A DNA stretch of 64,000 nt. It comes from an uncultured Candidatus Rokubacteria bacterium. GTDB taxonomy: Bacteria; Methylomirabilota; Methylomirabilia; Rokubacteriales; DASRDR01. Positions within the stretch are counted from its first letter, which is position 1. Every line of letters begins with the position of its first letter. The stretch is from assembly GCA_963708025.1 (NCBI GenBank), contig CAVPSB010000019.1:128001-192000 (forward strand), written 5' to 3'. Shown piece after piece: positions 30,001-33,000 of this stretch. Made by a program: the position numbers.

Positions 30001-33000
30001 ACGTCCTGCACCTCACCGAGAACCCAGCAACCGAGAGGCTCTATGGGCAGGCCGCTCAACGCCTGGCAGCCTGATTCATTTGCCGATTGGGGTCAGTGCA
30101 TCTCGATGCCGCCGGCGACGTTGAGGGCGACGCCGCTCACGTTGTCAGCGCGGCAGAGGTAGACCACCGCCTCCCCGATGTCGGCCGGTGTCTGCTCGCG
30201 GCCGAGCGGCGTGTTCCGGCGGACGAACTCGTCGAACGCCTGCTCGGGCGGAACGCCGAGCGACGCCGCCCGGGCCGGTCCCACCACGTCGAGCCACATG
30301 GACGTCCGGAGCAAGCCCGGGCAGACGGCGTTGACGCGGATGTTGGCCGGACCCAGCTCCTGGGCCAGGGCCTGGGTGAGGCCGACGACCGCGAACTTCG
30401 TGGCGGCGTAGGCGGCGGTGAAGGCGCGGCCCGTCTTGCCCGAGATCGACGCGATGTTGACGATCGCGCCCTCGCCCCGCGCCCGGAGGTGCGGCAGCGC
30501 GGCGCGGGTGCAGAGGAAGACCCCTTTCACGTTGACGTCCATCAGGCGGTCCCACTGGGCCTCGGTCAGGGCTTCGAGGGGACCTGCCACGATCACGCCC
30601 GCGTTGTTGACGAGGATGTCGAGGCTCCCGAGCTGCCGTGCGACCTCGCTCACCAGCGTCTCGACGTCGGCGGCCCGGGTCACGTCGGCCACCAGCGGCA
30701 GCGCCTTGACGCCGCGGGCCGCCGCCAGGCGGACCGTCTCGTCGAGGTCGGCGGAGCGGCCGAGACGATAGGGCAGGGCAGGGTCCTCGGCGACGCCGAG
30801 GTCGGCCAGGGCGAGGTGGACACCCTCGGCGGCGAGGGCGAGGGCGATGCCGCGGCCGATGCCGCGGGCGGCCCCGGTGACGAGCGCGACCTTGCCGGTG
30901 AGCTTCACGGCGGCTTCCTCCTCTGTTCGGGACCTCCCGCCCACCCCCCCAACCCCCCTCCCCCACCGTTCGACGGCCTTCGGCCTTTGGCCGGGGGGAG
31001 GGGGGAGCCGGAGGACCCGATTGGTTCAAACGCTCTCAGCTCACAGGTCGTTCCCGGAGTACGTCAGGTTGAAGCTCTTGTTGCAGAGCGGGAAGTCGGG
31101 GACGATGTTCTTCAGGACGGCGTATTCCAGGGCGGGCCAGTTCACGAAGGACGGGTCCTTCACCTTGACCCGGACCAGCTCCCCGGCCGGACCCGTCGCG
31201 ACCCAGTGGAGGATCGGGCCCCGCCACGCCTCGCAGCGCCCGAAGGCGTGCTGCCGGGGCGGCAGCGCTCCGAGGGGCGCCGCGATGGGGCCGGGCTCGA
31301 GCCGCGCGGCGACCTCGCCGATCAGGCGCACCGCTTCCCGGGCTTCCTCGATCCGCACCATCGTGCGGGCCCAGACGTCGCCCTCCTGATGGACGGCGAC
31401 GCGCGGCGCCAGCTCCCCGTAGGCCGCGAAGGGCGTATCGCGCCGCGCGTCCGCATCGATCCCGCTCGCTCGGGCGACCAGGCCGACCACCTGCATCTCC
31501 GCCGCCGTGCGAAGAGAGAGCCGACCGGTCCCCTGGAGGCGCTCGAGCACCAGGGTGTTCCCCAGCGCGATCGTCGTGACCTCCTCGAAATCCGCCACGA
31601 TCCGGGCGATCGTCGCCGCGGCCTCGGCCACCGCCGGTCCCGGCAGGTCGAGGGTCACGCCGCCCGGCACGACCGCGCCGCGGAGGAGCCGGTGGCCGGT
31701 CAGGCGCTCGTCGAGCCGCAGCAGGTCCTCGCGGAGCCGACCGCAGTGGGCGTGGGCGAAGGCGAAGCCGGTGTCGTTGAGGATCGCGCCGACGTCGCCC
31801 ACGTGGTTGTAGAGCCGCTCCAGCTCGAGGAACAGGACCCGGAGCAGCGCCGCCCGGCGCGGGATCGGGACGCCGGCCAGCGCCTCCAGCGCCTGAGCGT
31901 AGGCCACGGCGTGGCCGACGCTCGTGTCGCCGGAGATCCGTTCGGCCAGCGCCGGCGTTCGCTCGAGCGGGAGCGTCTCGAAGAGTTTCTCGGTGCCCTT
32001 GTGGACGAAGTAGAGGCGCGTCTCCAGGTTGACGATCGTCTCGCCCTCGACGCTGAAGCGGAAATGGCCCGGCTCGATGATGCCGGCGTGCACGGGACCG
32101 ACGGTGATCTCGAAGATCCCCTCCCCCTCCACGCGGCGGAACGGGTAGGGCTGCCCGTCGTCGGCGAAGTCGCCCGGCGGCGCCGCGTCCCGGCGGAGCG
32201 GGTGATATCCCTCGGGCCAGAACTGGTGCAGGGGCAGGCGCCGAGGATCGGGGTGGCCGACCGGCGTGAGCCCCAGGAGGTCCTGGATCTCGCGCTCGTA
32301 GCGGCTGGCCGCGTACGACCGCGTGGCGAGCGACGGGAAGACGGGGTGCTCCGGCGGCACCCGGACCCCCACGACCACGATGTCGATGGGCCCCGGTGGC
32401 CGCGAGGCGAAGCGGTAAACGAGCGTGAACGCCCCGGTGTCCCGGCGCGTGTCGGCCCCGGCCAGGAGCTCGAGCTCGGCCCCCGGGTCGCTCCGGAGCA
32501 GGTCGGCGAGCGGGGGCATGGCGACGCGCGGCGCCTCGCACGCGAGTTCGTGCGGGCCGCGAATGACGAGGTCGGTCACCCCGAGGTTCGCGGCGATCAG
32601 CCGCTCGGCCAGGTGCCGGAGCCGATCCACGGCTAGTGCCGTTCCAACTTGTTCCAGCTGGTGCTTACGAGGAACGTGTTAAGTCCGCGCTTCAAGAATC
32701 GCTTGTCCATTTTGACTCGGGGAGTTGGAACGGCACTAGCCCCCGAGGCCCACCGCCTCGACGATCCGCGCGAGGGCGCTGGCCAGCCTGTCGGGGAAGG
32801 CCACGCCGAGGACGACGAGCAACGCCAGGTTCACGCCGACCGGGACGAGCGGCCAGCGTGACGGCTCGCCGGCCGGAAGCCCTTCGGGTGGATTGCCATG
32901 GAGCATCCGGTTGACGGCGCGCAGGACGCCGCCGAAGACGGCCACCAGGAGCGCCAGCGCGGCGCCGGCCGCCCAGGGATGGCCACCGGCGAATCCCGCC

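Follow-up and report, generated by a model that had tools for sequence, protein, structure and literature searches.

A 107-bp CTAG-bounded element of Rokubacteria and its 320-bp form with a GIY-YIG nuclease gene: a candidate very small insertion element

Introduction

The window, as we call the 64,000-nucleotide stretch of DNA analysed here (uncultured Candidatus Rokubacteria bacterium, contig CAVPSB010000019.1, positions 128,001 to 192,000), carries at 32633-32739 a short element with inverted ends, squeezed between two hydrogenase-like genes. The question raised by this locus is which enzyme placed it there; the survey had found that longer elements with the same ends encode only a small GIY-YIG nuclease. 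Known prokaryotic insertion sequences use DDE, HUH, DEDD, serine or tyrosine enzymes, and no GIY-YIG enzyme is known to perform strand transfer. A literature search, with most subscription papers outside its scope, found no description of the element.

Results

Anatomy of the window element

The element consists of CTAG, a 13-bp end (TGCCGTTCCAACT), an interior, the inverted end and a second CTAG. The features of the locus are as follows.

32633..32636, no strand: left CTAG copy of the 4-bp target duplication, assigned from coupled non-CTAG targets in relatives
32637..32649, plus strand: 13-bp terminal inverted repeat, which codes the last residues (ERH) of the nuclease
32633..32710, minus strand: remnant 25-codon frame corresponding to residues 69-93 of the 93-aa GIY-YIG protein
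32723..32735, minus strand: 13-bp terminal inverted repeat on the gene-start side
32736..32739, no strand: right CTAG of the target duplication, in which the hydrogenase-4 subunit F-like gene has its TAG stop
32736..34202, minus strand: hydrogenase-4 subunit F-like host gene with an approximate start, lying upstream in the operon (NF005045, E 9e-129, below the NCBIfam cut-off)
31041..32630, minus strand: host gene, NuoC/D-like hydrogenase large subunit (NF004739, E 9e-64, below the NCBIfam cut-off)
45135..45240, plus strand: second mini-element copy in the window, 106 bp, 82% identical, on a TAG stop

The start of the NuoC/D-like gene lies 2 bp past the element. On the minus strand the left CTAG supplies the stop codon of the remnant nuclease frame, in which none of the catalytic residues is left. 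A structured-RNA reading of the element was rejected, an Rfam search having returned nothing close to threshold.

Two other repeats share this genome, designated G000. A second MITE family, with CCCCGATC ends, C/T-TA-A/G targets and lengths of 148-208 bp, occurs in the window (62532-62679), elsewhere in G000 (C23:115596-115792) and at L282, L234, L321 and L251-L253; it is nested inside a first-family copy in G000 and is young in genome G014, and its parent was not found. G000 also contains about 100 intergenic copies of a modular palindromic repeat with CTAGGACGCAGG (for example C13:236402-236530), often after TAG, and related modules lie inside variant elements of L007, L031 and L440.

Copies, stop codons and the empty site in G000

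G000 contains 51 exact 12-mer ends, 49 of them preceded by CTAG; a control with the reversed end pattern gave 0 matches. The survey had counted 28 copies, and our recount agrees, with 27 CTAG-paired copies and one with a TCAG end making 28 whole copies, besides which there are 2 partial ones. A separate ORF/GC3 rule also reproduced the reported placement of 24 of the 28 on TAG stops; 25 of the 29 element sites tested were TAG-stop sites, compared with 717 of 2402 other CTAG sites (p 6e-10), so the enrichment stands, and only the background figure differs from the 705 of 1807 non-coding CTAG sites first given. The enrichment would follow from the scarcity of CTAG in a GC-rich genome and from the fact that insertion at a stop keeps the host gene whole.

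An empty site had been reported, in which contigs skip 103 bp at the element. The joint itself was not seen, and the skip fits indirectly, by depth and alignment arithmetic: one X1 contig (781 bp, depth 15.9) aligns to 33206-32736, the same depth is found at 32381, 56 letters from a contig end, and these pieces fit a skip of exactly 103 bp.

Target duplication of four base pairs

CTAG is palindromic, so perfect copies cannot distinguish target from end; variant targets can. The same non-CTAG tetranucleotide was found on both sides as CCAG twice in G014 and as CTCG once in G068 and twice in G005, and two full elements carried coupled variant targets (CTGG and CACG). Among 49 pairs from G207, drawn from part of that genome (20 stretches and 10 loci), coupled changes occurred at positions 1, 2, 3 and 4 in 5, 3, 1 and 2 pairs, TTAG and CTAA among them, with no 5- or 6-bp repeat at any of the 49; several of the TTAG (position-1) pairs represent one inherited nested event, and at least two events at the outer target positions are independent. 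Coupled variants at all four positions mean that the duplication is 4 bp and that the element runs TG...CA. The claim that CTAG is duplicated on insertion is thus upheld, with the correction that CTAG is the target and not part of the end. A whole mini nested in another mini's internal CTAG, with CTAG on both sides, agrees with a 4-bp duplication.

A TA-only, IS630-like duplication had been hinted at by 10 position-1 against 2 position-4 variants (p 0.04), and is ruled out by the coupled changes at all four positions in G207. Among metagenome partner ends (L075-L176, L194), position 3 alone varied 15 times and position 2 alone twice (p 0.002), an asymmetry not seen in the five genomes searched (7 against 8 matches). 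The six positions outside the target displayed no strong base preference.

The full-length element and its nuclease

Full elements measure 310-334 bp, or 302-326 bp (mostly 314-318) between targets. The 320-bp element of G014 has one credible gene, whose 93-aa product ends LERH-stop within the right end, as the survey had described; the last codons cross that end, and the stop lies in the duplicated CTAG. No promoter or terminator was found in the full element. Its ends can pair as a 17-bp stem in single-stranded DNA, with single-strand fold z scores of -4.7 and -5.4, values expected for any inverted-end element.

The GIY-YIG identity of the product was confirmed (PF01541, E 8.5e-11; PDB 1zg2, E 3.3e-8), and the two Tyr motifs, central Arg and C-terminal Glu of the superfamily are all present, with Y5, Y16, R26 and E62 conserved in 87-90 of 91 proteins. 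UPF0213 and Slx1 were again the two nearest solved folds, from a predicted model (pLDDT 89) that adds a C-terminal helix to the GIY-YIG domain and for which Foldseek returned nothing at E <= 0.001. Of at least 120 proteins listed among 170 homologues, 91 are exactly 93 aa long and 64 of those 91 end LERH; a representative-sequence search gave 13,531 relatives. In all 66 pairs from 12 genes pN was lower than pS, and the median dN/dS was 0.21 over 37 unsaturated pairs; the nuclease is under purifying selection, and its active site is intact.

The gene sits between both ends in all 11 in-clade loci found by protein, 10 of them with ends within 2 mismatches and one (L063) with variant ends, and 0 of 20 out-clade loci have such ends, in line with the control reported before. 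The in-clade loci include named Acidobacteriota, Nitrospirae and Gemmatimonadales records as well as relatives from the element's own phylum, and 14 proteins of the clade group together on a single, modestly supported branch (86/73).

In the full elements of L061, L063 and L303 both ends share a mirror-image change, so that the sequence of the inverted repeat has moved on without any loss of its perfect match. Variant ends after the target (GCACCAAC, CCTCCAAC and GGACTTCCAAC) also bound multi-copy elements of 80-230 bp (L430, L448 of G188, L003, L007 and L026-L031); the variant-end elements are possibly subfamilies with their own nuclease variants.

Minis as deletion products

The interiors of the minis had been called unrelated. 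In G000 that description does not hold, the interior corresponding to the decayed last 25 codons of the nuclease gene: on the minus strand of the window copy, the profile score of the non-end part exceeded all 300 shuffles (p 0.003), and the frame was significant by the same standard in 14 of the 27 G000 copies tested, most of the others having small indels or deletions in it. In G014 a 90-bp mini consists of the two ends of that genome's full element joined together, and G179 supplied two more deletion products of the full element. The window mini thus derives from a GIY-YIG full element by internal deletion. In agreement with the survey's claim for G000 that it has no full-length copy, the sole GIY-YIG match there lies within a 641-aa frame.

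The metagenome length class of 107-109 bp, given before as 60 of 121 loci, was recovered as 63 elements in 122 loci. Among 83 metagenome minis the remnant frame reached p < 0.01 in just 7, and the interiors of 64 minis 107-109 bp long made up 42 clusters, indicating that length is conserved and interior is not. Helical phasing of the lengths was considered, 104 bp per unit corresponding to ten turns, and rejected, as units of 86 and 70 bp spread too.

A recent burst in G014

G014 holds 343 exact ends and about 170 young minis, 26 of the 41 sampled being identical to the consensus. Its 14 small GIY-YIG matches, which indicate at least 14 near-identical full copies, comprise five whole copies and many halves at contig ends; the whole 320-bp copies are 4-10 differences apart and have different flanks, one of them bearing a nonsense change, and six of six contig-end left halves are mutually identical over 140 bp. 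Full copies have also inserted within minis. Flanks were unrelated at every copy examined, and the element has thus spread recently to many sites.

Minis form Russian-doll stacks in their own internal CTAG or near-CTAG (L254-L268 in G014, L369-L396 in G207), with up to five left ends; in some stacks right ends are fewer than left ends.

Distribution

A 16-mer of the end was present in 14 of 151 genomes of the order. Across the phylum, the end occurred in 47 of 246 genomes (a count that leaves out five unpublished genomes), 19 of which had nine or more. The in-clade nuclease gene was detected in 4 of these 19 multi-copy genomes and in 2 of the 227 others (p 0.0004), and IS630 in 5 of 19 and 82 of 227 (p 0.46), significance being overstated in both tests, as the genomes of the phylum are kin. 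With 20 candidates scored per genome, no full in-clade gene was found in 15 of the 19, G000 and G207 (173 ends) included, and a direct gene search in five multi-copy genomes returned remnants or other clades only.

Viruses and plasmids were considered as a home of the element, which the searches did not bear out: among 16 viral loci there was one element of 107-109 bp, 15 of the 16 viral end matches had no close partner, the sole viral protein match was an out-clade gene beside tRNA-Lys, and the plasmid search gave no match.

Search for a transposase acting in trans

The survey had left room for a transposase element with the same ends acting in trans. In G000 an intact IS630 was not found, nor was any long element with these ends. 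In G014, where the DDE search covered three families, there was no DDE_3 or DDE_5 match and no IS630 or IS701 transposase; the one DDE_Tnp_1 locus lacks these ends, and the only IS630-like sequence was a fragment with a helix-turn-helix alone. That fragment (L209 3-390, G014:C32) has no catalytic domain and lies directly upstream of, and in frame with, the next gene, which we take from its sequence to encode a carbon monoxide dehydrogenase medium-subunit-like protein.

Five partition patterns gave 45 matches in G014, and behind none of them did a long element of a different kind follow. Of these, 27 are explained by point variants, by a deletion, by self-nesting or by the second MITE family; the other 18 came from a looser 8-base pattern, of which three were read (a chance site and two copies belonging to a short variant subfamily) and the rest judged from 22 bases. 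Among the 122 metagenome loci, 42 of them with 300-bp flanks only, no partnered element exceeded 334 bp, and five ends ran into GIY-YIG sequence; where an end had no partner, the ORFs behind it, 53 in all, fell into no transposase family. These ends did not bound any of the 39 IS630 loci examined, and IS630 in trans with the same ends was rejected as a candidate; L345 carries a near-end 12-mer, apparently not where its IS630 frame ends. In relatives, some IS630 elements do start with CTAGTG and finish in a His-stop that the target creates, so that the element's ends may descend from such an element, and CTAG-bounded DDE elements of 1.3-2.1 kb also occur in relatives.

The survey's caveat is thereby narrowed and not closed, as short-read bins can hide multi-copy transposase bodies. 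A multi-copy repeat starting with TGTCGCTGG, probably an insertion sequence whose body collapsed in assembly, is represented by its first 140 bp only at 5 of 138 G014 contig ends (L475, L476, L479, L480 and L539), in a check of 0.96 Mb that covered 80 of about 240 contigs, some for their first 20 kb only. Given this repeat and the parentless second MITE family, a missing transposase body in G014 proves little; more weight attaches to the lack of foreign interiors behind these ends.

Sister GIY-YIG genes

Direct repeats of 18-108 bp, mostly copies of the start of an adjacent tRNA gene, flank 13 of the 20 nearest out-clade GIY-YIG genes on both sides. The wider family therefore looks selfish, which makes a selfish role for the nuclease plausible. 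Sister small GIY-YIG genes lie beside tRNA genes (Asp, Asn, Ser, Lys) at L309, L311, L312, L314-L319, L323-L325, L065, L066, L329 and L362, and the tRNA start is often duplicated upstream and in tandem units. These tRNA-linked genes seem to be a selfish family in their own right, duplicating at tRNAs, and a targeted literature search found no description of it.

At L360 and L363, GIY-YIG genes of Ssn type are flanked by GTCATT-type palindromic repeats, both repeat-linked clades being present in one phylum; the label given to L360 is our assumption, made from its repeat flanks. The nuclease is 33% identical to the L360 protein and lies on a separate branch (100/100) from the two Ssn-type proteins. 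With these two, chosen by their flanks, as the reference for cd10448, the nuclease appears to belong to a clade different from Ssn.

Discussion

What moves the element

The elements constitute a real, recently active insertion-element family whose sole identifiable parent encodes a selected, intact GIY-YIG nuclease. We consider that the family is probably a GIY-YIG-driven insertion element, spread by nuclease-driven nicking and copying. The autonomous form would have a single gene, for the single-domain 93-aa nuclease, and minis would arise from it by internal deletion and move in trans. Once the two ends had paired as a stem in single-stranded DNA, the nuclease would recognise that stem, as SsnA does a hairpin, and make nicks staggered by 4 bases at CTAG in both donor and target. 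The CTAG ends so left, being self-complementary, would pair with the donor, and copying by host polymerase and sealing by host ligase would give an element with CTAG on either side. In this scheme the nuclease would be the mobilising enzyme. The survey's proposal of a new class of very small insertion element holds up as a candidate, refined by the origin of the mini as a deletion product and by the 4-bp duplication; no other element was found behind the ends in G014, and IS630 does not track the ends across the 246 genomes. We infer, rather than observe, that GIY-YIG stands in place of a transposase.

The TG...CA ends, the 4-bp duplication and the sharp 108-bp size speak against such a reading, being typical of DDE-moved MITEs, and they lead to the main alternative: both forms are moved in trans by a DDE transposase that has escaped detection, and the GIY-YIG protein is a conserved selfish helper that cuts empty or excised sites, repair of which restores the element, much as TnpB helps IS200/IS605. 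This would account for the classic MITE anatomy and for the missing full gene in most multi-copy genomes, and would explain strand joining by known chemistry; the relatives do contain CTAG-bounded DDE elements and IS630 ends that share CTAGTG and the H-stop, and collapsed repeats may hide transposases in G014. Yet a collapsed partner ought still to show its ends, and no long element with these ends was found in G014, G000, the 122 metagenome loci or the 39 IS630 loci; a 4-bp duplication does not fit IS630, and a domain of 93 aa offers little for the recognition of numerous unrelated empty sites. We therefore regard this alternative as unlikely.

A role for the nuclease without true duplication is far harder to sustain. 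Single-strand peel-and-paste in the manner of IS200/IS605 or REP-RAYT, with a nick inside CTAG, hydrolysis and a host ligase, could give the 15-to-2 asymmetry between positions 3 and 2, and SsnA makes its cut in single-stranded DNA, a few bases before a hairpin (PMC11893778). That asymmetry was absent from the five genomes, however, and the coupled variants (CCAG, CTCG, CTGG, CACG, TTAG and CTAA) need true duplication, which leaves peel-and-paste very improbable. The reading to which we give least credence takes the nuclease for a passenger, either neutral or of service to the host, that a MITE captured a single time and that has no role in movement. Full copies are indeed far fewer than minis and many have decayed (one of the five in G014 has a nonsense change, and L305 and L306 contain stops), but purifying selection extends across about 60% protein identity and several phyla, always inside the ends, the placement is scattered and non-syntenic, and many fresh full copies accompany the largest burst, a very young one.

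Returning to the nuclease-driven reading, we lean slightly towards a wider version of it, in which a 93-aa hydrolytic GIY-YIG nuclease and host repair move a 320-bp element with a 4-bp duplication and without any strand-transfer enzyme. The element would then be a branch within an extensive and overlooked group of small selfish GIY-YIG elements, which would also include the tRNA-duplicating sister genes and Ssn and could hold the missing mover of some orphan bacterial repeats. If the enzyme is the mover, as is probable, the element represents a new kind of bacterial transposon. It would then bring a new chemistry to insertion sequences, at a size far below that of typical autonomous ones; a recently active 320-bp element makes directly testable the Ssn hypothesis, that small GIY-YIG genes are present or past transposases, and, if active, would offer a compact CTAG-specific insertion tool. 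It is also a candidate mover for orphan MITE-like repeats, on which transposase action was without experimental support as of 2007, according to the accessible text of PMC2229807.

Comparison with known systems

Ssn of Neisseria, which the survey did not mention, is the nearest precedent and the closest system in function. As the accessible part of its description states (PMC11893778), SsnA, a GIY-YIG protein of 94 aa, attaches to a hairpin of single-stranded DNA and makes its cut a few bases upstream; Ssn proteins (cd10448) are single-domain, of about 94 aa, with the same catalytic Tyr, Tyr and Glu, and their genes are flanked by NTS/SRM repeats that are also scattered in hundreds. The authors noted that NTS-ssnA-NTS resembles an insertion sequence, its movement being a hypothesis, and the accessible part contains no target duplication, empty site or nesting (PMC11893778). 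Whereas the Ssn repeats are self-contained hairpins of 20-50 nt (PMC11893778, same part), here two 13-bp ends bound the element. Inspection by eye of 13 in-clade loci revealed no SRM/NTS hairpin repeats beside the nuclease, and 13-bp ends and host DNA instead.

The bacterial MITEs RUP/IS630-Spn1, Correia and ERIC, as far as the accessible text of PMC2229807 describes them, are alike in a size of about 107 bp, terminal inverted repeats, target duplication, intergenic position and stem-loops; most have TA ends and a proposed DDE parent, in contrast to the 4-bp duplication and GIY-YIG parent seen here. The minis are likewise short, with inverted ends, target duplication and many copies. No DDE parent with matching ends was found, in bins that can hide repeats. 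The CTAG group of IS630 shares the CTAG target, the TG after CTAG and the target-made stop after His, but its elements are about 1.1-1.2 kb long with a DDE enzyme, and the end sequence differs beyond CTAGTG. IS630 duplicates TA, and the CTAG-group loci examined here are TA-bounded; the present element has no 2-bp TA duplication, and its only gene encodes GIY-YIG rather than a DDE transposase.

IS200/IS605 and REP-RAYT elements are very small, with hairpin ends, a tetranucleotide target and non-autonomous derivatives. They employ an HUH (Y1) enzyme without duplication, whereas the present element has no HUH motif, symmetric ends and a true duplication; their features are also discussed in the accessible text of PMC11893778. 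The UPF0213/Slx1-like proteins (PDB 1zg2, 1ywl) and the GIY-YIG homing endonucleases share fold and active site with the nuclease, which differs in an extra C-terminal helix that ends inside the element's end and in having no separate DNA-binding domain; homing endonuclease elements occupy one cognate allele, usually in an intron or intein, in contrast to the unrelated sites occupied here. On the features compared, the element lies outside Ssn, IS630, IS200/IS605 and the homing elements as groups; it looks like a MITE family, and works most like Ssn with its repeats.
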